Made by a program: the position numbers and the translations under genes. A DNA stretch of 64,000 bases from Candidatus Nomurabacteria bacterium. Its GTDB lineage: Bacteria; Patescibacteriota; Minisyncoccia; Phycocordibacterales; UBA2100. The stretch lies in the NCBI GenBank assembly GCA_943356775.1, contig CALRFU010000005.1, positions 11,671 through 75,670 on the forward strand. Reading direction: 5' to 3'. Each line of letters begins with the position of its first letter. Positions within the stretch are counted from its first letter, which is position 1. Below the pieces are notes generated by a model that did no database searches, was not told the origin of the DNA, and was given only the letters and a program-made list of their open reading frames with translations. This document shows positions 5,327 to 60,952 of the stretch, piece after piece.

Positions 5327-5417
5327 CCGAGAATCGTATCACGCCTCTCCTGGGCCCGAGTAGTAGCTCCGCGGCTGCTTGGCGCGGCCATGGAAACGAA
5401 AAGGTTTTCCCCACATA

Positions 5418-5445
5418 CCAAACTTACGCTATAGCGTAAGTTTGG
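5418..5445. promoter_or_regulatory. 28-bp perfect palindrome CCAAACTTACGCTATAGCGTAAGTTTGG (core TACGCTATAGCGTA)
   Basis: Perfect dyad. The same 14-bp core recurs at both ends of the PaaX-like gene 46470..47045. Position is upstream of 5042..5326 and downstream of rpoD. Confidence 0.6.
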
Positions 5446-5473
5446 TGTGTCTAGGTGAGATGAAGGGTAGGCG

Positions 5474-6745
5474 TTAGTACGAACGAAGTTGTTTGGCGCG
5501 GTCGTGGAAACGGATGCGCTCCAGTGCTTTTGCTTCAATCTGACGAATTCTTTCGCGGGTGACGCCGAATTCGCGACCCACCTCTTCGAGGGTAAAGCAA
5601 ATCCCCTCTTCCGTAAGTCCGTTGCGCATTTCCAATATCTTCCGCTCTTTGGGTGAAAGCTCCTCCAGAATTGCTCCCATTTGTTCATTGAGAATGCGGC
5701 GCGAAGCGTCCATATCAGGGCTGGCGATGGTATCGTCTGCGATAAAGCTGCCAAGTGTCGAGCGCTCATCATCGTCCTCACCTACCGGAGACTCGAGTGA
5801 GACGGTGTCCTGATTGATTTTTTGAATAGTGTAGATTTTGTCTATTTCGATACCCATTTCTGCGGCGATTTCTTCGGGGAGCGGGTCGCGGCCGAGGTGC
5901 TGGTTCAATTCACGTACTTTTTGCTTGTATTTAGCGATGGTTTCCACCATGTGCACCGGGATGCGGATGGTGCGGGATTGGTCTGCCAAAGCACGGGTGA
6001 TGGCCTGACGAATCCACCAGGTAGCATAGGTCGAGAATTTGTAGCCTTTTGTGTAATCGAACTTATCTACGGCTTTAAACAAGCCCAAATTCCCCTCCTG
6101 AATCAAGTCGAGGAGCGTGAGGTCTGGTGAGCGATTGACGTATTTCTTCGCGATAGAGACGACGAGGCGAAGGTTGGAGCGGGCGAGGATGTTGCGTGCT
6201 TCGTTGTCTTCTTGGAGGATGCGCTTCGCCAGGTCCTTTTCTTGCTGACCGTTGAGAAGCGGGTACTGACCAATTTCGCGCAAATACATCTGCACGGAGT
6301 CGTAGCCCGCATCCGAGCGGCGGTTCTGTAATTTCTTGCTCGCCAAGACGGAATCAGCGGAGCTATCTTCGAGCATGCCGCCCCCCTCCAAGATGTCGAT
6401 GCCCGCGACGGAGAAACGGTCATAGATTTCTTCGAGCAAAGAGACGTTGTCTTCAATCGTCGGGAATTCGCGGAGAATTTCGTCGTAGGTGATGTATCCG
6501 CGCTCTTTACCCATCAGGATAAGCGCCTCAACTTTATTTTGCCGCTTATCGCCCGCGCCTTTCTTGGTGGATGCGGAAGCGGAAGCCGCTTTCTTATTCC
6601 TGGCTTTAGAAGCCTTTGCGCTCCTTTTGACCGCGCGCTCTTTCTTGGTGCTCGCGACCTTCTTTGTGCGGGAAACGGGCTTCTTGCGCGCAGGCTGTTT
6701 TGCACGTTTTACCGCTTTTTGTTTTTTTTGCTTTTTATTTGCCAT
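5474..6745 (-). CDS. rpoD: RNA polymerase sigma-70 factor RpoD
   Basis: 423 aa with a K/A-rich N-terminus, regions 2-4 ([40 protein letters not shown]) and a C-terminal HTH. Confidence 0.95.
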
Positions 6746-8613: not shown

Positions 8614-9086
8614 AAGGACATTATGCCCTTTTCAATGCCCTAAGGACAGACGGCGATAATATCGAAACGAGCAAAACTTCCTACTCCTCACCTTCTTGCC
8701 TCTTTCGAATCTCGCCGGGATATGTATCGCTTTCCATAGATACGCGACCTTCAATATTAGGATGGCGTGCCGTAAGTAAATCCATAGATTCTTTAGGAGA
8801 CATATTCAATGCGAGTAAATCAGGCATCAGCTTCCGCACACCCTGCCATTCTGCCGTTACTTAATGTGCTATCTCATCAATCATATCCTCAACCTCACCC
8901 GGATGAGCATATATCTCGGTTCCCGGTATTCTGACTCTTGGATATCCTTTATTAAATTTTCCGTCCATATTTTTTCAACCCACTTGATATGACGCTAAGA
9001 GTACCCCCCTTTTTTTGCAATCGATGCATGTGGAAAAGGTGTCAGTCACATACCCGCATCTCCGCCAACTCCCGACTTTTCACCCT

Positions 9087-9125
9087 TATTGTTTAGCTCG
9101 TCCGGTCGGACATATTAAACAATAC
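9087..9125. promoter_or_regulatory. Nested palindrome TATTGTTTA-N20-TAAACAATA with inner TCCGGTCGGA (downstream copy)
   Basis: 9-bp perfect arms plus an inner dyad, 2 nt after the stop of the 9130..9717 gene. A second copy lies at 9717..9755. Confidence 0.6.
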
Positions 9126-9129
9126 TCGT

Positions 9130-9717
9130 TCAATCAAGGGGAAGACCGAATTCCTTGCGCAGCGGCACATCATACTCAATCGCATCCGCAATGATGTAGA
9201 GTAAATCCTTGCCGATGCGCAGCTCTGCTTTGAGAAGCGCGACTGCCTCCTCACAATCATACGGATATGCCCATACGCTGTCTTGCAAGCGGACGAAACC
9301 AAAGCCAGATACAATGCCGCGCGCTTGTGCACGAAGGTAACTCCGCTTTTCTGGGATATCAAAGATGACCAGCCGCCATTTATGATCCCACCGGAGTGGT
9401 CGGGGCAATGGCCCGCGAACAGTGAGCGATCGCAAGTGAGTTTTACCCTTCTCTGTTATTCGTAACGAAACACGACCTCGCTCACGGACGAACGCGACAA
9501 GTTTCTTTTTCTGCAAACGATAGGCAGCCTCGCGAATGCGCTGTCTTGGATCACGTTTGATGAGCCAGTCGGGATCGACGTATTTCAGTAGCTGCAATGT
9601 ATTTGGCGCAGCCATTGCGACAAGGCCTACGCCAGCAACGGCGAGCGTCCCAAGAATTGCGCGCTCTATTTGCCCGCGCTTGGTCCGTTTCTTAGATGTC
9701 TGCTCCATTGTACCCAT
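9130..9717 (-). CDS. PaaX-like (COG3327-type) putative transcriptional regulator, paralog 1
   Basis: 195 aa with WRLVIFDIPEKRSYLR...GFGFVRLQDSVWAYPYDCEE, a C-terminal signature shared with 46470..47045. N-terminal basic and hydrophobic segment. Confidence 0.55.
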   Translation of the reverse strand: MGTMEQTSKKRTKRGQIERAILGTLAVAGVGLVAMAAPNTLQLLKYVDPDWLIKRDPRQRIREAAYRLQKKKLVAFVRERGRVSLRITEKGKTHLRSLTVRGPLPRPLRWDHKWRLVIFDIPEKRSYLRAQARGIVSGFGFVRLQDSVWAYPYDCEEAVALLKAELRIGKDLLYIIADAIEYDVPLRKEFGLPLD

Positions 9718-9755
9718 ATTGTTTATCTTATCCGGTCGGATAAATTAAACAATAA
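9717..9755. promoter_or_regulatory. Nested palindrome TATTGTTTA-N20-TAAACAATA (upstream copy) abutting the start codon
   Basis: Same arm and inner ATCCGGTCGGAT dyad as 9087..9125. Begins 1 nt upstream of the ATG of the 9130..9717 gene. Confidence 0.6.
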
Positions 9756-17951: not shown

Positions 17952-18685
17952 CTTCGGAGGTTAAACCTTCGGAGATTCGTGGTACGCTAGACGGATGGCA
18001 ACACGGGCACCATGCGTGACAGACGAGTGGTATCACTGCTACAACAGGGGTGTCGACAAGCGCAAGGTTTTCGAGTCGAAGGCGGACTATGAACGCTTCA
18101 CCGCCCTCTTATATGTTTCAAACGGGGATAAGACCGAGGCTATTTCCGACAGGTACCGCAGAGATTTGCAGTCGATTCTCGCAGGTGACCCCGCGGAGCG
18201 GGGCAGACCCCTCGTAGACATCGCTGCTTTTTCCTTGATGCCTACCCATGTCCACTTGGTGTTACAACAACTGCAAGACGGCGGGATTGCCCGATTCATG
18301 CAGAAAGTATTTACCGGCTACACGATGCATTTCAATGCGAGGCGGGAGCGAACCGGCGCCTTGTTCGCGGGTACATACAAAGCGAAACACATCGACGACG
18401 ATAGATATCTCAAGAAGGTGATTCCGTACGTTATTTTGAATCCTGCGGAGCTATTTGAACCGAAATGGAAACAAGGAAAATGCGATGTTCGAAAGGTGCG
18501 CGCGCAATTGTTGGAATATCCCTACTCCAGTGTGAAAGAGTTCTTCAGTAAAGACGCAACGGCCCAGAAAATCACTGGCGCAGGTATACGAGAATACTTC
18601 GACCGAATGCCGAATCTGACGGAAATGCTTAGAGACGCGCAGGACTACTACCGTGAGTATTCTCCGGAGGTTTAACCTCCGGAGT
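17952..18685 (+). mobile_element. Compact IS-like element: HUH Y1 transposase gene flanked by 23-bp terminal inverted repeats
   Basis: Left end 17952..17974 is CTTCGGAG-GTTAAAC-CTTCGGAG. Right end 18663..18685 is CTCCGGAG-GTTTAAC-CTCCGGAG, the reverse complement of the left end with 2 mismatches. They enclose the 17995..18675 transposase ORF. Confidence 0.6.
17995..18675 (+). CDS. tnpA: IS200/IS605-family (RAYT-like) HUH tyrosine transposase
   Basis: 226 aa with YHCYNRGVDKRKVF..., the HUH motif MPTHVHLVL, and catalytic-Tyr region FTGYTMHFNARRE...GALFAGTYKAKHI. Confidence 0.7.
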   Translation: MATRAPCVTDEWYHCYNRGVDKRKVFESKADYERFTALLYVSNGDKTEAISDRYRRDLQSILAGDPAERGRPLVDIAAFSLMPTHVHLVLQQLQDGGIARFMQKVFTGYTMHFNARRERTGALFAGTYKAKHIDDDRYLKKVIPYVILNPAELFEPKWKQGKCDVRKVRAQLLEYPYSSVKEFFSKDATAQKITGAGIREYFDRMPNLTEMLRDAQDYYREYSPEV

Positions 18686-25624: not shown

Positions 25625-25630
25625 TACAAT

Positions 25631-25684
25631 ATATGCCAGAATCATTTCTCAGTAAAAATATGCCAGAATCATTTCTCAGTAAAA
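25631..25684 (+). repeat. Perfect 27-nt x2 tandem duplication, in-frame (MPESFLSKN/MPESFLSKK)
   Basis: atatgccagaatcatttctcagtaaaa occurs twice consecutively at the 5' end of the giant gene. Confidence 0.9.
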
Positions 25685-36686: not shown

Positions 36687-36699
36687 GTATCCGTTGACA

Positions 36700-36900
36700 C
36701 CGAAGCTGCAGAACGCTAGGATGGACGCATCAGAGATTGCTCCGGCTACGAACCGGAGGCCTGCTAAAAACGGGAGCGAAAGCCTAATCTGAAGAGAAAA
36801 AGTGCCCTTCGGGGAAACTAGGTGGGACCGCGGTTCAAGTGAAATCGCCCTAGTGAGTGTACGAACCTTTCGTACGTTCACTCGGGCGCTTTTTATTATC
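36700..36900 (+). promoter_or_regulatory. T-box riboswitch leader (Thr) upstream of thrS
   Basis: aaactaggtgggaccgcgg at 36816..36832 matches the T-box consensus AAUUAGGGUGGNACCGCGG. It is followed by a roughly 20-bp-stem terminator (cgccctagtgagtgtacgaa / ttcgtacgttcactcgggcg) plus cttttt. An ACC Thr codon is present in the candidate specifier region (gaACCgg). Confidence 0.6.
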
Positions 36901-36962
36901 CAATTAATTGATTGACGGCCGCGTAACAATTGACGCCACGCGGCATGATTTCGCAAAATCAC

Positions 36963-38207
36963 ATGGCTAACGAACCTCAGGCAGACGCGAACGAGCGCGA
37001 CCATAAGAAGCTGGGTAAGGAACTCGACCTCTTTACCTTCTCCGACTCCGTCGGCAAAGGACTTCCCCTCTGGACGCCGAAAGGTTCTGCAATCCGCCGC
37101 GAGCTCGAGCGTTTCATCGTTGATGAAGAGATCCGGCGCGGCTACCAGCACGTCTACACACCGGACATCGCAAAGCTCGATCTCTACCGCAAATCCGGAC
37201 ACTATCCGCACTACAAGGATTCGATGTATGCACCGATTGTTATCGACGAGGAGGAATTCATGCTCCGCCCGATGACCTGCCCGCACCACTTCGAGCTCTA
37301 CCTCGACAAGCCGCACAGCTACCGCGAATTGCCGATGCGCATCGCGGAGCTCGCCAAACTCTACCGCTACGAGCAATCAGGAGAATTGATGGGTCTGCAG
37401 CGCGTGCGCTCGTTCTGCCTCGCCGACGCACACATCATCTGTGCTTCCGAAGAACAGGCCGCCGACGAAGTATCCAAGGCGCTTGACCTCATCGTCTACG
37501 TCGCGAGCGTCTTCGGCCTCATACAAGGTGAGAACTATCACTTCCGCCTCTCGCTCGGAGACCGCACCAACACCGAGAAGTACTACAAAAACGATGCAGC
37601 ATGGGAGAAAGGTGAAAAACTTTTGCGCGAACTCCTGGAAAAGCGCGGCGAGAAATTCGAAGAAGCAAAAGACGAAGCGGCTTTCTATGGCCCGAAGATA
37701 GACATCCAGATGAAAAATGTGAATGGCAAAGAAGATACGGCCTTTACCGTGCAATACGACTTCTGCATGCCGGAACGTTTTAATCTCACCTATACGGGAG
37801 CAGACGGAGCCCAGCACCGGGCATTTGTCGTCCACCGCTCATCCATCGGGGCAATCGAGCGCATCGTTGCCTTCCTCATCGAACACTACGCGGGCAACTT
37901 CCCCCTCTGGCTCTCTCCTGTGCAAGCAAAAATCCTTCCAGTGTCCGAGAAGCACGCTGCATACGCACAAGAAATCCTCGAGCAATTCCGTGCGGCCGAT
38001 ATCCGCGTCGAGCTCAGCGCCGATGATTCACTCGGCAAGCGCATCCGTGGTGCAAAGATGGAAAAGGTCCCCTACGTGCTCGTCGTCGGAGATGCCGAGG
38101 TAGAAGCGAAGACGGCTACGCTCGAAGGCCGCGCCGGAAAGATAGGCGCACTCCCTGTTGCTGACATCATCGCGAGACTGAAAGAAGAAATCCGAACTCA
38201 CCAATAA
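36963..38207 (+). CDS. thrS: Threonyl-tRNA synthetase, catalytic and anticodon-binding domains only (no N-terminal editing domain)
   Basis: Class II aaRS motifs (LWTPKGSAIRRELERF, FMLRPMTCPHH, RVRSFCLADAHIICA, QYDFCMPERFNLTY). Only about 415 aa versus about 640 aa for the canonical enzyme. Confidence 0.9.
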   Translation: MANEPQADANERDHKKLGKELDLFTFSDSVGKGLPLWTPKGSAIRRELERFIVDEEIRRGYQHVYTPDIAKLDLYRKSGHYPHYKDSMYAPIVIDEEEFMLRPMTCPHHFELYLDKPHSYRELPMRIAELAKLYRYEQSGELMGLQRVRSFCLADAHIICASEEQAADEVSKALDLIVYVASVFGLIQGENYHFRLSLGDRTNTEKYYKNDAAWEKGEKLLRELLEKRGEKFEEAKDEAAFYGPKIDIQMKNVNGKEDTAFTVQYDFCMPERFNLTYTGADGAQHRAFVVHRSSIGAIERIVAFLIEHYAGNFPLWLSPVQAKILPVSEKHAAYAQEILEQFRAADIRVELSADDSLGKRIRGAKMEKVPYVLVVGDAEVEAKTATLEGRAGKIGALPVADIIARLKEEIRTHQ

Positions 38208-38360: not shown

Positions 38361-39875
38361 CTAGTTGCGGTTGATGACGATGCGGGGAGCATCACCTTCT
38401 TTTGAGATCTCAACCGTCATCGAGTCCGTTGTCTGCTTTGCCGTCGGTGCGACCGGAAGGTTTTCCATCACATCGACAGGGCTTGGCGTCATCGTCTCGA
38501 CAGGAGCTTCGACAACATCGAGCTTCGACTCTTCCGGGATGCGCACGGTCTCGTACGCGTCGGATTGGTGAGAGCTTTTTGCTGAGTTTGCGAAGGCGAG
38601 AACCTGGGTCTTACCTGCCGCGCTGAAGAGTGTACCCGGCACGTAGTAGACCGCGAGGTAGGCACCGGCGACTGCGAAGGAGATGATCGAGAGCCAGTAG
38701 AGCGCGTTGCCCAAGAGCCCCGCGTCGAATCCGGTGTAAGGAATCTGAGAGAGCGAGATGTACGAACCCTGAACCGTCACGTACGCGTTGCAGGTATTCG
38801 TGCCGCCGTATCCGGAGACCGTGAGTGTATAGGTCTTGGATACGTTCGGACGAACTGCGAGCGAACCGTTGACCGCGACCGCACCGATGCCATCAGAGAG
38901 CCATGCGCTTGTCGCACCGCTGGAAGACCATGAGAGGTACGCAGCTTGACCGTTGGCAATCGAACCTTGGGTCGCCGTGATGACACAGTAGGCGTTGGTG
39001 GTCGGGTAGATTGGGTACGTAGGATACGTTGGGTAAATTGGGTAAATTGGGTAGACCGGCTGTTGTGGGTAGACGTACTGTACTGGGTACGTGACCGGAG
39101 TCTGAGCGACGGGGATGACCGATACCGTGTTCACATTCGTGTTGACGTTGTTGTTCGTGTTCACGATGTTAATCGGTGTCGAGCTTTGCTGTTGCTGCTG
39201 TTGCTGGACCGGGCGCTGAGGCTGAGAAGCCGGGTACGAAGGAGCGTACGAGGTGCTCGGAGCGCGACCGAACGAAGGCATTGAGAATCCCCCGCCGGAG
39301 CTAGAGCCGCCGGTAGAACCGTATCCTGTCGAGCCGTAGCCTGAATAATAACCAGTTGCGTATTTGTTGTAGGAGTATCCGACGCCATATTGTTTGATTA
39401 CGTCAGTACCATACACATCGGTACCGAACGTGGTACCGCCCCAGGAGTCAGTGCCGAGGGTCGTTCCGCCCCATGCGTCGCTGCCGAGTGTGGTACCGCC
39501 CCAGGAGTCAGTGCCGAGGGTCGTTCCGCCCCAGCCGTCGTTGTAGGTGGTACCGCCCCATGCGTCGCTACCGTAAGTAGTGTCACCCCAACCGTCGCTG
39601 TAGGTAGTATCACCCCATCCGTCGTTGTAAGTAGTGTCACCCCAACCGTCGCTGTAGGTGGTATCACCCCATCCGTCGTTGTAAGTAGTGTCACCCCAAC
39701 CGTCGCTGTAGGTGGTGTCCCCCCAGGAGTCGCTACCCCACGTAGTGTCGCCCCAGCCGTCGTCGGAATCGGCGTGTACGGCGCTCGGGGCAATAAACCC
39801 AGAAGCGATAGTGATTGCGCAGAGAAGCGCGATGACCACAAAGAACTTGCTTGATTTGCTGTTTGCGAACGTCAT
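38361..39875 (-). CDS. Secreted/surface repeat protein with a signal peptide, about 16 tandem 9-aa repeats, low-complexity regions, a sortase-like IPYTG motif, and a C-terminal TM with tail
   Basis: N-terminal signal peptide (FFVVIALLCAITIASG). Repeats GWGDTTY(S/N)D x about 16, encoded by 27-nt tandem DNA repeats at about 39420..39760. Poly-Q, NVNTN and YPIYPT repeats. ...SQIPYTGFDAGLLGNALYWLSIISFAVAGAYLAVYYV then a 90-aa tail. Confidence 0.7.
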   Translation of the reverse strand: MTFANSKSSKFFVVIALLCAITIASGFIAPSAVHADSDDGWGDTTWGSDSWGDTTYSDGWGDTTYNDGWGDTTYSDGWGDTTYNDGWGDTTYSDGWGDTTYGSDAWGGTTYNDGWGGTTLGTDSWGGTTLGSDAWGGTTLGTDSWGGTTFGTDVYGTDVIKQYGVGYSYNKYATGYYSGYGSTGYGSTGGSSSGGGFSMPSFGRAPSTSYAPSYPASQPQRPVQQQQQQQSSTPINIVNTNNNVNTNVNTVSVIPVAQTPVTYPVQYVYPQQPVYPIYPIYPTYPTYPIYPTTNAYCVITATQGSIANGQAAYLSWSSSGATSAWLSDGIGAVAVNGSLAVRPNVSKTYTLTVSGYGGTNTCNAYVTVQGSYISLSQIPYTGFDAGLLGNALYWLSIISFAVAGAYLAVYYVPGTLFSAAGKTQVLAFANSAKSSHQSDAYETVRIPEESKLDVVEAPVETMTPSPVDVMENLPVAPTAKQTTDSMTVEISKEGDAPRIVINRN

Positions 39876-46327: not shown

Positions 46328-46427
46328 TCTGTGGTGAATTGCAAAACGAAACTAGCCGCCACAGTATGCGGCTCTTTACTTTTGTTTCTTTTGTATTTTG
46401 TATAAATCCTTTCCCACATTTCTTACC

Positions 46428-46465
46428 TATACTATCTTTACGCTATAGCGTAGATATAGTATAGA
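46428..46465. promoter_or_regulatory. Near-perfect 38-bp palindrome with core TACGCTATAGCGTA (downstream copy)
   Basis: CTATACTATCTT-TACGCTATAGCGTA-GATATAGTATAG, 5-8 nt from the stop of the 46470..47045 gene. Confidence 0.6.
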
Positions 46466-46469
46466 TGCC

Positions 46470-47045
46470 TTAAGTGGACTTTTTGAAACCAAATTCTCTC
46501 CTGAGCCTTGCGTCCCCCTCAAGTTCATCAACTATCATGTAGATTACGTCTTTCCCGATTTTGAAGTCAGCCTTTAAAAGAGTTATCAGATCTTCACAGT
46601 CGTATGGGTACACCCACACGCTGTCCTGAAGTCTTACGAACCCGATATGCATAAGTGTGCGGCGGATTTTGTCTCGAACTGCCTTTCGGTATTCAGGCAC
46701 ATCGAAGATGAGGACTCGCCACCTACCATCCCAGCGAGAAGGCTTTTTTATTGAGTATTGCGACTCGAGGATTGCTAAAACCGATGAACCTTTATTGGTC
46801 AATTGGAGTTTTCCATCTTTTTTCGAAAGGAGTCCTTTTTCCAATAGTAGTCGTCGTGCCCGCCCAATGGTGCTTCTACTCTGAAGCGCATTCGGTAGGA
46901 GCCCCATTTTTTGAAGTGCTTGGGGTACGTTTGGAGCCATCACAGTAATACCGACAAGTGCTGATGTTTTTGCAAGAGTTAGAATTGCATATTTAAAATC
47001 CCGCCTTCGCTTCCTTTTTCTTCCAGATTCTTCGATGACACCCAT
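46470..47045 (-). CDS. PaaX-like putative transcriptional regulator, paralog 2
   Basis: 191 aa sharing with 9130..9717 the motifs WRVLIFDVPEYRKAVR...GFVRLQDSVWVYPYDCED...LLKADFKIGKD. Confidence 0.55.
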   Translation of the reverse strand: MGVIEESGRKRKRRRDFKYAILTLAKTSALVGITVMAPNVPQALQKMGLLPNALQSRSTIGRARRLLLEKGLLSKKDGKLQLTNKGSSVLAILESQYSIKKPSRWDGRWRVLIFDVPEYRKAVRDKIRRTLMHIGFVRLQDSVWVYPYDCEDLITLLKADFKIGKDVIYMIVDELEGDARLRREFGFKKST

Positions 47046-47080
47046 ATACTATATCTACGCTATAGCGTAATTATAGTATA
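47045..47080. promoter_or_regulatory. Near-perfect 36-bp palindrome with core TACGCTATAGCGTA (upstream copy) overlapping the start codon
   Basis: TATACTATATC-TACGCTATAGCGTA-ATTATAGTATA, starting at the ATG of the 46470..47045 gene. Confidence 0.6.
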
Positions 47081-47122
47081 CCTTTCTTCAGGATTGATTG
47101 CCCCAGGAATTCCACACCTGGA

Positions 47123-56301: not shown

Positions 56302-57282
56302 TTAGGCTGCAACACTCTCTCCTTTTTCCGCCTTCTCAAGCGCCTGGAGAATCGGCTCGATACCCCCGGCCATAATCTTCGGTACGTTGGACCACGATTC
56401 CTTGATGCGGTGGTCGGTCACGCGGTCTTGAGGAAAATTGTAGGTACGTATCTTCTCGGAGCGGTCGCCGGTCCCGACTTGCGCCTTGCGATCCGCCGCT
56501 CGCTCGCGTGCCTCACGCTCATCCTGCTTCTGTTGAATACGGCTTATCAGCAATGTCATCGCCTTCTCCTTGTTCTGCGCCTGTGAGCGCTCGGATGTAC
56601 ATTTCACGTCGATGCCCGTCGGCAAGTGGACGATGCGGACGGCGGTCTCTACCTTGTTGACGTTTTGCCCGCCGGCGCCGCCCGAGCGCGACGTCTCTAC
56701 CTCAAGGTCGGACGGATTTATTACAATCTTGGTGCGTTTGTATATCGGAAGAATCGCGACAGAAGCAGTCGACGTGTGGGTGCGTCCGGCCTTCTCTGTA
56801 GCCGGAACACGTTGCACGCGGTGTACGCCCGTTTCGTATTGTAGTGTGCGATAGACATCTCTCCCTTTTATTTCAAACTGCGCCTCCTTGTACCCGCCCA
56901 GGCTGCTGCGCGATTCGTCGAGAGCCTTTGAATTCCATCCCCTGGTCTCCGCATATTTCAAATACATTGCGGCGAGCTCTTCTGCAAAGAGTGCGGCTTC
57001 GTCACCGCCGACTCCGGCACGCACTTCGACGACTACCTCATTCGGCCATTCGCGCTCGTTGTCACCTCCGACGATAGACTCTATCTGACCCATCAGAACG
57101 CTTTTTTGGCTTTCAATATCACTAAGCTCTTTCTCCGCAAGCTCTTTCATTGCGGGGTCCACCTCAATCAACTCCTCCGCATCTTTTTCCGCTTGTGAAA
57201 GACGGTTCCATTCGGTAATAAGGAAAGAGACGCGATTATCGTCCGCGTATTCCTCAAGATTTATTTTCTTTTTTTCCGCCAT
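56302..57282 (-). CDS. prfA: Peptide chain release factor 1
   Basis: GGQ motif ([24 protein letters not shown]). RF1-type tripeptide-anticodon region RVQRVPATE...RTHTS (PAT rather than the RF2 SPF). Confidence 0.9.
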
Positions 57283-57299
57283 AGCGTAAGTATAACGCC

Positions 57300-59782: not shown

Positions 59783-59913
59783 AGCACGCCGCCGCAGCTA
59801 CGCCGAGGAACCTCGCGCAGCAAACATAAGAGATGCTGTTACATATAGTAGTGGTGATTCTATCCACTATTCATCGGAGGGAAAGTTCAACGGCGTAGCT
59901 GCGGCGGCGTGCT
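59783..59913. repeat. MITE-like unit: 23-bp perfect inverted repeats separated by 84 nt
   Basis: AGCACGCCGCCGCAGCTACGCCG at 59783..59806 and its exact reverse complement at 59891..59913, in the divergent rplY / pfkB-kinase intergenic region. Confidence 0.75.
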
Positions 59914-59968
59914 AAAATAAGGGGCCGCGTTTCAAAGGACGGTACGCGGCATAATTTCGCAAAATCAC

Positions 59969-60952
59969 ATGAAATACGATTTCGTCGCCATCGGCGACAT
60001 TACGACAGACGCTTTTATAAAATTGAGGGACGCCGAAGAGCTCATGAATCACGGCACGCGCCAACTGTGCGTGCGCTTCGCGGACAAAGTCCCCTTCGAA
60101 GAAATGATTGAGATTCGCGCAGTGGGCAACGCGGCGAACGCCGCCGTTTCTGCTCAGCGCATCGGGCTTTCTTCGGCACTTATCGCGCGCGTGGGTGATG
60201 ACGAGAACGGCGTACACTGCCGGGAAACGCTCAAAGGCAACGGCGTATCGGATGAATACGTGGAGACGCAAAAAGGGCTTGCTACCAATTATCATTACGT
60301 CCTCATGTTTGGTGCAGAGCGTACGATTCTGGTAAAACAAACGCCCTTTAAATACGCGCTGCCCGCTTTCTCGGAGCCACCCCGCTATATCTATCTCACT
60401 TCACTCGGTGAAAGCGCCAAGGAATTTCATCATGAGGTAGCGAGATATTGTGCCGAGCATCCAGAAACCAAACTCGCCTTCCAGCCCGGGACGTTCCAAA
60501 TAAAGCTCGGCGCAGAAGAGCTCAAGGATGTATATGCGGTGACTGAGATATTCTTCTGCAACAAAGAAGAAGCGCAGACAATACTAAAGACCCAGGAAAC
60601 CGATATCAAAAAGCTTATGGAGGGCTTGCGCGTGCTTGGGCCAAAGACAGTCGTCGTCACCGACGGACCAAACGGCTCGAACATCCTCGATGAAAGCGGA
60701 GCATGGCATGTCCCAATGTATCCAGACCCCGCACCACCAGTTTCGCGCACAGGCGCAGGAGATGCGACCGCATCCACCACCGTTTCGTTCATCCACTTGG
60801 GATTGCCGGCGGGCGAAGCGCTCTTGCGTGGCGTCATCAACGCCGCCTCCGTCGTGCAGGGAATCGGCGCACAGACCAAACTCCTCACCCGCGCGGAGAT
60901 AGAAGAATGGTACGCCAAGCGCCCCGCGGATTTCCGAGCGACACAACTCTAG
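59969..60952 (+). CDS. PfkB-family carbohydrate kinase (ribokinase-like)
   Basis: N-terminal FVAIGDITTD, NAANAAVSAQRIG, C-terminal RTGAGDATAS (pfkB signature 2). Confidence 0.8.
   Translation: MKYDFVAIGDITTDAFIKLRDAEELMNHGTRQLCVRFADKVPFEEMIEIRAVGNAANAAVSAQRIGLSSALIARVGDDENGVHCRETLKGNGVSDEYVETQKGLATNYHYVLMFGAERTILVKQTPFKYALPAFSEPPRYIYLTSLGESAKEFHHEVARYCAEHPETKLAFQPGTFQIKLGAEELKDVYAVTEIFFCNKEEAQTILKTQETDIKKLMEGLRVLGPKTVVVTDGPNGSNILDESGAWHVPMYPDPAPPVSRTGAGDATASTTVSFIHLGLPAGEALLRGVINAASVVQGIGAQTKLLTRAEIEEWYAKRPADFRATQL

Follow-up and report, generated by a model that had tools for sequence, protein, structure and literature searches.

Why should two unrelated genes, thrS and a pfkB-family kinase gene, be preceded by almost the same sequence right up to their start codons? 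A repeat search of the whole window (the 64,000-nt stretch of Candidatus Nomurabacteria DNA analyzed here) identified a two-copy family of 49-nt direct repeats at 36917-36965 and 59923-59971, in which 42 of 49 positions (86%) are identical, confirming the near-identical stretches that a preliminary description had noted ahead of the two ATGs. Six of the seven differences fall in a single 13-nt segment, the loop of the first hairpin described below (hypergeometric estimate, P ~7e-4), and pairwise alignment of the copies shows that the likeness is bounded by a 5′ G and by the ATG. The 28-mer ACGCGGCAT(G/A)ATTTCGCAAAATCACATG, which ends in ATG, occurs exactly twice in the window (36938-36965 and 59944-59971), and not at all in 100 shuffles of it. 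The downstream open reading frames are as originally described, coding for a 414-amino-acid threonyl-tRNA synthetase (ThrRS) without an editing domain (thrS, 36963..38207, forward strand) and a PfkB-family sugar/nucleoside kinase (pfkB, 59969..60952, forward strand), with homologues named as Candidatus Kaiserbacteria, Paceibacterota, or Patescibacteria; neither gene has a Shine-Dalgarno sequence, again as claimed.

The repeated unit is an element of 44-45 nt composed of a GC-rich 7-bp stem with a YAANNGACG loop (H1), a single A, and an AU-rich 6-bp stem with a CGNN loop (H2). In the thrS copy (copy 1; 36918..36961, forward strand), H1 pairs 36918-36924 with 36938-36944 around the loop AACAAUUGACGCC (36925-36937), the linker A is at 36945, and H2 pairs 36946-36951 with 36956-36961 around the loop CGCA, followed by C36962 and the thrS ATG at 36963. 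In the pfkB copy (copy 2; 59924..59967, forward strand), H1 pairs 59924-59930 with 59944-59950 around the loop UUCAAAGGACGGU, the linker A is at 59951, and H2 pairs 59952-59957 with 59962-59967 with one A.C mismatch (UAAUUU/AAAUCA), followed by C59968 and the pfkB ATG at 59969. The GCCGCGT/ACGCGGC stem of 7 bp and its 13-nt loop had been recognized previously and are present in both copies, with compensatory changes lending the stem evolutionary support; the stretch that had been taken as a 23-nt tail to the ATG is instead a second hairpin (TGATTT-CGCA-AAATCA) separated from the ATG by one base, and an in-frame ATG at 36945 in the thrS copy had been overlooked. Fold prediction for copy 1 gives both hairpins (minimum free energy -14.2 kcal/mol), and that for the pfkB copy gives H1, with H2 abolished by the A.C mismatch; H1 has a stability of about -12 kcal/mol, as against about -2 for H2. 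A covariance model built from the copies found in genomes (the genome set), run over the whole window with filters off, reports these two copies only (copy 1, 69.4 bits, E 1.4e-13; copy 2, 75.1 bits, E 8e-15), with the next best match at 10.8 bits, and Rfam 15 contains no family for either window copy, even at E values up to 10.

The element is widely distributed. In GTDB species genomes (one per species), the 20-mer GCATRATTTCGCAAAATCAC has 30 hits where ~2 are expected, with up to four exact hits per MAG, and 28 of the 30 are in Patescibacteria (Kaiser-, Adler-, Nomura-, and Zambryskibacteria, and Paceibacterota); the two others, from other phyla, look like chance matches. An H1-only pattern matched at least 120 metagenomic loci, with ~100 real among the matches listed, and a structural scan of the collected loci yields at least 109 unique copies. 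Three copies lie within 3 kb in one locus (L047), and tandem or compound copies occur in L023, L033, L034, L052, L085, and L105, those in L033, L034, and L105 being direct rather than inverted tandems; the viral contigs scanned gave no hits. These motif searches in genomes and metagenomes place the element at many unrelated sites, including the insides of genes, and the orthologous thrS and pfkB loci of close relatives lack it (see below), so we regard it as a generic dispersed repeat and not as the thrS/pfkB-specific co-regulatory signal that the preliminary description entertained; nor are the window stretches the terminus of a repeat element, as each is a whole copy. Topic, sequence-string, and peptide-string searches of the literature returned nothing describing it, and a protein database search with a 51-amino-acid concatenate of the element-encoded peptide gave no candidates, probably through a word-index effect; there being no Rfam match and no description in the literature searched, the element is previously undescribed. 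The explanation that best accommodates family membership, a covarying structure, start-codon adjacency, insertion polymorphism, in-frame intragenic copies, and conservation at orthologous sites, all of which we observe, is that of a dispersed, insertion-spread palindromic element that is transcribed as a start-proximal leader (with a probability of roughly 0.7), and the designation as a dispersed insertion element is by itself quite probable.

Both stems are supported by covariation. The loci were gathered by exact patterns, so that intact copies are over-represented; the genome set is unselected for H1 and the metagenome set is unselected for H2. In the genome set, H1 has double changes at four of its seven pairs (none of 500 shuffles reaches the observed score), with the closing pair being U-A in 14 copies and C-G in 12. 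In the metagenome set, H2 has double or compensatory changes at five of six pairs, and 99% of cells are paired, compared with 25-45% in slid controls; its variants include UGAUUU/AAAUCA, UGAUUC/GAAUCA, CGAUUU/AAAUCG, UAAUUU/AAAUUA, and CGGUUU/AAACCG. RNAalifold independently recovers the same two hairpins, and the covariation check across relatives that had been proposed earlier thus bears out both stems. The conserved unpaired positions are GACG on the 3′ side of loop 1, the single linker A, and the CG that begins loop 2, and a purine-rich GGACG loop motif is present in ~60% of the copies. Loop-loop or inner-helix pairing in H1 was considered and rejected, as the only variation is C-G to U.G, with zero double changes. 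C.A and A.C mismatches (8-10) are no rarer than G.U wobbles (4-5), and without a G.U excess on the sense strand the fold is not demonstrably selected on the mRNA strand specifically; the structure could matter as a bottom-strand single-stranded DNA hairpin instead of in mRNA.

The palindromy is internal to two separate hairpins, and the element accordingly has no terminal inverted repeats of the MITE type; its 5′ GCCGCG and 3′ AAATCA ends are not inverted copies of one another. Flank profiles reveal an A-rich context and an avoidance of T at -1 and no clear target-site duplication; A-rich direct repeats flank a few copies (L050, L063, and L102), possibly by chance. With no transposase, terminal inverted repeats, or target-site duplication identified, the term mobile refers to the distribution of the element and not to a mechanism. 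Some copies have their flanks in differing combinations: L099 and L061 have an identical upstream flank and element joined to different downstream genes (KhpA-like in one and another gene in the other), and L041, L073, and L103 have the same KhpA gene with different upstream flanks, which suggests that recombination may occur at element copies.

The position of the element is best viewed against the translation style of its hosts. A large part of bacterial diversity is accounted for by the Patescibacteria (CPR), most of which are uncultured and in which the start of translation is poorly understood. Among 45 curated starts in the window, 15 have a TAnnnT motif 5-9 nt upstream (background 4.7%), and six have a Shine-Dalgarno-like motif, which is at the background level (10.7%); together these point to a leaderless-rich, Shine-Dalgarno-poor lineage, and the genome appears to make wide use of leaderless mRNAs. 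Hexamers such as TATACT, TAGAAT, TAAAAT, and TATGAT lie 6-8 nt before the ATG at many window genes, and -10-type hexamer starts are exemplified by those at 1601, 4414, 33158, 57282, 59742, and 62830 on the reverse strand and 33519 on the forward strand. In an element-bearing Patescibacterium (L127), the 3′ tail of the 16S rRNA (6292-6360, reverse strand) reads GGAAUAUUUCAAAU / GGAAUAUUUCAAAUUGAAC, against the model consensus GGAUCACCUCCUUU, and has no CCUCC anti-Shine-Dalgarno. A stretch of this 16S rRNA, UUCAAAUUGAA, is similar, and also nearly complementary, to some H1 loops (UUCAAUUGACG); complementarity or mimicry between an H1 loop (UUCAAUUGA) and the tail (GGAAUAUUUCAAAUUGAA) is suggestive, but we set it aside because it concerns a single 16S rRNA and the loops vary within one genome.

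Most copies abut a start codon. In 75 of the 109 copies listed (~70%), an AUG lies -1 to +5 nt from where H2 ends, and in 63 of these 75 it is exactly 1 nt after H2, with the remaining 12 elsewhere in that range; the intervening base is C in 48%, U in 34%, and A in 16%. The 1-nt spacing is retained both in copies with a 5-nt H2 loop and in those without an internal AUG, so that the rule is one of structure and not of reading frame. The internal AUG is absent from ~12% of copies, including that at pfkB, and we reject it as the true start both on this account and as the 1-nt spacing is kept even though a 5-nt H2 loop breaks the frame. L100 (248-320) has a DnaX-like gene after the element with AUU, not AUG, at the 1-nt position, and the AUG within the element shares the reading frame of this gene; the start codon may therefore come from the element in some copies, this one being an example. 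Directly 3′ of the element in two unrelated contigs (L034, 1605-1664, and L066, ~157-220) is a conserved 20-amino-acid lysine-rich open reading frame, MGKGNNSRRKE[A/V]KKPKKAKK, which may be an unannotated small protein.

Upstream of the start-adjacent copies lies either a -10 box or the stop codon of the preceding gene. Of the start-adjacent copies whose upstream flank was long enough (75), 35 follow a long open frame on the same strand that stops no more than 60 nt before them, often at 0-15 nt, and are intercistronic. A -10-like hexamer is present 2-16 nt upstream of 42, of which 20 have no upstream open reading frame end; the clearest -10 boxes, judged by eye, are ~5 nt from H1, which is the commonest distance. 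This arrangement bears on the possibility that the repeat acts at the DNA level, as a shared promoter or as a palindromic operator for a dimeric transcription factor just past the -10 box. Two inverted repeats directly 3′ of -10 boxes, with nearly invariant arms, are compatible with such a signal, as is TTGACG-18-CAAAAT within the thrS copy; however, the -10-like hexamer of this pair is only 3 nt from the ATG, compared with 6-8 nt in the leaderless promoters of this genome, the -35-like hexamer is not conserved (most copies have GGACG), the arms undergo compensatory changes within one metagenome, unlike a protein-contacted half-site, and about half of the start-adjacent copies are intercistronic and have no promoter; the copies inside open reading frames also count against it. 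We consider a DNA-level signal extremely improbable. The earlier suggestion of a shared promoter or leader therefore holds for a start-proximal leader of both genes, but not for a promoter, as the sole -35/-10-like pair is inside the thrS copy and is unconserved. As for specific candidates, a promoter inside the element was rejected, since the pfkB copy does not score and the hexamer in the thrS copy ends 3 nt before the ATG, which would put the transcription start on the 3′ side of that codon; a sigma-54-like GG...GC match, examined by eye, is off by one base, and CRP-, Rex-, or LacI-type operators, also by eye, have no half-site match and are at odds with the covariation, which goes against a protein-read DNA half-site.

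The thrS locus illustrates how the element comes and goes. The true thrS start is ATG 36963, because homologues begin with MNEP or MADE, and the internal ATG at 36945 was rejected as a start, homologues beginning at the downstream ATG; public gene calls lengthen the closest thrS homologues by six element-encoded codons (MISQNH). The protein comprises a class II core and an anticodon-binding domain, with no N-terminal editing/TGS region; a few ThrRS homologues of 585-635 amino acids carry a tRNA_SAD domain. Upstream is a T-box leader (36694..36898, forward strand) with a promoter-like TTGACA-17-TAGGAT (36694-36722), a partial T-box core match (36790-36852; 21 bits, below gathering), and a terminator-like hairpin and T-run ending at ~36898, so that the thrS copy does follow a T-box terminator, as had been stated, and sits between it and the thrS ATG. 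Orthologs with 84-98% amino acid identity (L001-L004) are without the element: in L001 (89%), the T-box and terminator are kept with just 17 nt before the ATG, in L002 (93%), only 11 nt separate the dnaE stop from the ATG, and L003 (84%) and L004 (98%) have TATGAT-N8-ATG. A link between the element and the T-box was rejected, as L001 has a T-box without the element. The dnaE-thrS spacer (window 36687-36962, compared with L001-L004) is hypervariable even though the synthetases are 84-98% identical, containing a T-box in the window and L001, an extra small open reading frame and a leaderless promoter in L003 and L004, and just the 11 nt in L002. From these comparisons we infer that insertion placed the element after the T-box terminator and ahead of the ATG.

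At pfkB, a -10 box (TAAAAT, 59913..59918, forward strand) lies 5 nt upstream of H1, and both the divergent L25 gene and a gtgcTAnAnT -10 box are conserved in all of the relatives compared. Three relatives whose PfkB proteins have 94, 89, and 88% identity (L006, L007, and L008) have -10/N6-7/ATG and no element, and two with 93 and 87% identity (L021 and L037) have -10/N5-11/element/C/ATG, as in the window and at the same syntenic site. The L006 box is the same as that in the window and is 6 nt from the ATG (leaderless), so the window pfkB transcript should begin at or beside the first G of H1; we infer that insertion between the TAAAAT box and the ATG would have turned a leaderless mRNA into one with H1 at its 5′ end. 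The covariance model finds no copies at the empty orthologous loci. A third locus behaves similarly: the window gene for a PD-(D/E)XK nuclease (744-1601) is leaderless, and its 82%-identical ortholog in L020 carries the element. L020 and the empty thrS locus L001 are on the same contig (JACRFK010000003.1), and the set of element-bearing genes therefore differs between sister genomes.

Where the element is present at orthologous sites, it is conserved. Among the pfkB genes of the window, L037, and L021, third-codon identity is 0.42-0.54, as against 0.84-0.94 in the 50 nt before the ATG, and sequence farther upstream of the element is unalignable; identity so far above that of synonymous sites reflects either purifying selection or homogenization among copies. 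The inverted repeat that had been reported beside the kinase copy does precede it, lying between the divergent L25 and pfkB genes (59783-59913) with 29-nt arms that are 93% complementary and 73 nt between them. This site is differently filled in L006, on the same base (aaaagcacgcc...gtgctaaaat) and with an internal block, GAACCTCGCGCAGC, common to both, and L037 has a short hairpin only; the inverted repeat could represent another palindromic element that was inserted here, or an RNA of unknown kind.

A further set of copies lies within genes. Among the 109 copies listed, 16 are in the sense orientation inside open reading frames, and all 16 are in one frame, encoding RRVSKDGTRHDSAES-like peptides of the form (R/G/S)R(V/A)S(K/M/N/I)DG(T/A)RHD(S/F)(A/V)(E/K)S; with two antisense copies (in a UDG-like protein in L139, and in L117), the intragenic total is ~18. 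The hosts include a ClpB-type AAA protein, CofD, PfkB, a RecJ-like DHH protein, a Mur ligase, iPGM, FtsK, PGI, YbeY, HolA, and RecA; their Pfam domains flank the insert on both sides or span it, and comparison of RecA between L029 and L012 shows the element as a clean insertion in the former. These copies add 15-residue inserts to proteins, which is a matter for annotation, and the presence of selfish-type palindromic DNA in essential proteins such as RecA, FtsK, ClpB, and Mur ligase was earlier mainly a Rickettsia curiosity.

Genes downstream of the element code for EF-Tu/EF-G, RecA (three), Maf (three), L35, DnaK, PfkB (three), and PD-(D/E)XK, and also for the Ile-, Asp-, Tyr-, and Thr-tRNA synthetases, RRF, RNase III, RuvB, the RNR small chain, CarB, YebC, and ScpB. 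The 53 downstream proteins have 83 Pfam families spanning translation, repair, chaperone, metabolic, and envelope functions, and no functional coherence is apparent across them. Could the element nonetheless be a genuine cis-regulatory RNA, a protein- or ligand-binding leader or translational operator of a conserved Paceibacteria regulon in which intragenic copies are rare accidents? The strong covariation in both stems, the conserved GACG and CG loop bases and linker A, the AUG spacing fixed at 1 nt, the conservation far above synonymous sites, and the recurrence of EF-Tu/EF-G, RecA, Maf, L35, PfkB, and PD-(D/E)XK genes across lineages would all be expected of such a leader, and some stand-alone copies followed by terminators (L039 and L094) could be decoy sRNAs. 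It is unlikely, however, given that the downstream genes are functionally incoherent (membrane proteins among them), that ~18 of the 109 listed copies are inside open reading frames, two of them antisense, that orthologs with up to 98% amino acid identity lack the element and carriers differ between sister genomes, and that the sense strand has no G.U excess.

An insertion-spread element transcribed as a start-proximal leader would work as follows. The family would spread through insertion. An insertion would come between an upstream signal and either an ancestral leaderless start (with the ATG 6 nt from its -10 box) or a closely spaced intercistronic junction, and the element would from then on make up, in the sense orientation, the final 45 nt of the transcribed leader, with 1 nt left between it and the AUG. 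Copies may persist beside starts because the fold is compatible with, or part of, Shine-Dalgarno-independent start-site use, with the stable H1 providing docking or protection and the marginal H2, next to the AUG, being able to melt; in this sense the element would be a mobile leader cassette or translational operator. Selfish spread alone does not readily account for the 1-nt AUG spacing or for the conservation at orthologous sites, and the exact spacing, sense bias, and conservation suggest that the fold is involved in the use of start codons or in mRNA stability, although a real RNA-level role in translation or stability, as read from sequence comparisons, is a tentative proposal to which we give somewhat less than even odds. 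A bolder form of the idea is doubtful. It envisages the element as a mobile, phylum-wide ribosome-loading leader in those Paceibacteria that no longer have Shine-Dalgarno/anti-Shine-Dalgarno pairing and depend on leaderless or coupled starts; the 45-nt two-hairpin cassette would be where the ribosome or an initiation factor docks, with the AUG offered 1 nt past H2. If true, the element would stand in for the Shine-Dalgarno sequence as a transposable, IRES-like module that could be pasted before any gene. The same geometry of H2, 1 nt, and AUG resembles cleavage one base past a stem, and the lineage clearly favors leaderless mRNAs, so the element might instead be a processing signal at which an RNase cuts after H2 to restore, from the inserted leader, a leaderless mRNA beginning at the AUG. 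We find this very unlikely, as 12 of the 75 copies depart from the 1-nt spacing, within a range of -1 to +5, sense intragenic copies in essential genes would also be cut, and Rfam yields no match to a ribozyme or RNase-substrate family.

Among known systems, the leader of E. coli rpsA, with GGA-loop hairpins, and the thrS operator are structured, Shine-Dalgarno-independent leaders that are gene-specific and vertically inherited. The element resembles them in placing hairpins in a Shine-Dalgarno-less leader right before the start codon, with the GGACG loop motif in ~60% of copies, but it differs in that one cassette serves dozens of unrelated genes, is polymorphic in close relatives, and also occurs inside open reading frames. 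REP/REPIN sequences, which go with RAYT (Y1) transposases, are extragenic and often paired as inverted doublets, their typical places being 3′ ends and the spaces separating convergent genes. Like these, the element is a short, GC-rich, imperfect, multi-copy palindrome whose hairpins are kept by compensatory changes, and Y1-transposase-like genes exist in this lineage (window 17995-18672 and L007); unlike them, its copies are single, sense-oriented, and start-adjacent or intragenic. The covariance model gives no hits beside the Y1_Tnp genes of L007. The window gene, a 226-amino-acid open reading frame (17995-18672, forward strand) with a weak match to Y1_Tnp (IS200-like transposase; 24.1 bits, cutoff 23), is flanked by 24-nt inverted repeats with the hairpin GGAGGTTAAACCTTCGGAG in a RAYT/REP-like arrangement (17952-18684); a link between this gene and the element was rejected, the flanking palindrome GGAGGTTAAACCTTCGGAG being unrelated to H1 and H2.

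Rickettsia palindromic elements (RPEs) are portrayed, in the account given in PMC10969869, as dispersed palindromic repeats of ~100-150 bp with no recognizable transposase, found in non-coding DNA as well as in-frame in many unrelated housekeeping open reading frames, where they use one frame and encode a conserved hydrophilic peptide (PMC10969869, summarizing Ogata et al. 2000, 2002). Compared by that description, the element is similarly a dispersed, multi-copy palindrome with single-frame inserts in unrelated open reading frames, a pattern characteristic of RPEs; it differs in its length of 44-45 nt, its Patescibacteria hosts, its two unlike hairpins, the ~70% of copies that end 1 nt before a start codon rather than lying within genes, and a sequence that is conserved in several lineages of candidate phylum or class rank. 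Correia (CREE), ERIC, and other bacterial MITEs are small, non-autonomous, and co-transcribed with their neighbors, whose expression they can alter (PMC10969869). The element is like these in lying mostly just upstream of genes and within the mRNA leader, but MITEs are of 100-200 bp or more with terminal inverted repeats and target-site duplications, neither of which is seen here, and the element has no usable promoter and a fixed 1-nt AUG spacing. It is best filed with the small dispersed palindromic repeats (RPE, REP, and MITE-like), among which it is unusual in its length (45 nt), in having two dissimilar hairpins and no terminal inverted repeats, in its multi-lineage conservation, and in its start-codon adjacency at 1 nt.

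In a lineage where Shine-Dalgarno sequences are used little or not at all, dozens of housekeeping genes have this one conserved fold exactly 1 nt ahead of their start codons, and leaderless and leadered forms of the same gene interconvert between close relatives via a single 45-nt indel. Start-codon choice on leadered and polycistronic mRNAs in this lineage thereby becomes directly testable, and the element is in addition a short and easily searchable marker.

Other repeats are present in the window. Paralogous PaaX_M-domain genes at 9133-9717 and 46473-47045 each lie between a pair of long palindromes (9082-9754 and 46424-47091, respectively), which are ACCCTTATTGTTTA...TAAACAATA and TATACTAT..TACGCTATAGCGTA..ATAGTATA; the TACGCTATAGCGTA core is also found at two other intergenic sites (5410-5446 and 57274-57291), and these palindromes may be operators or another repeat family. 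A 504-amino-acid open reading frame (38361-39875, reverse strand) with no Pfam match contains at least seven units of tandem 27/30-nt repeats (39416-39760) and is probably a repetitive surface protein. At 25628-25681, a 27-nt tandem duplication (AATATATGCCAGAATCATTTCTCAGTA twice, 96% identical) spans the start of a 1265-amino-acid open reading frame, giving two in-frame ATG contexts.
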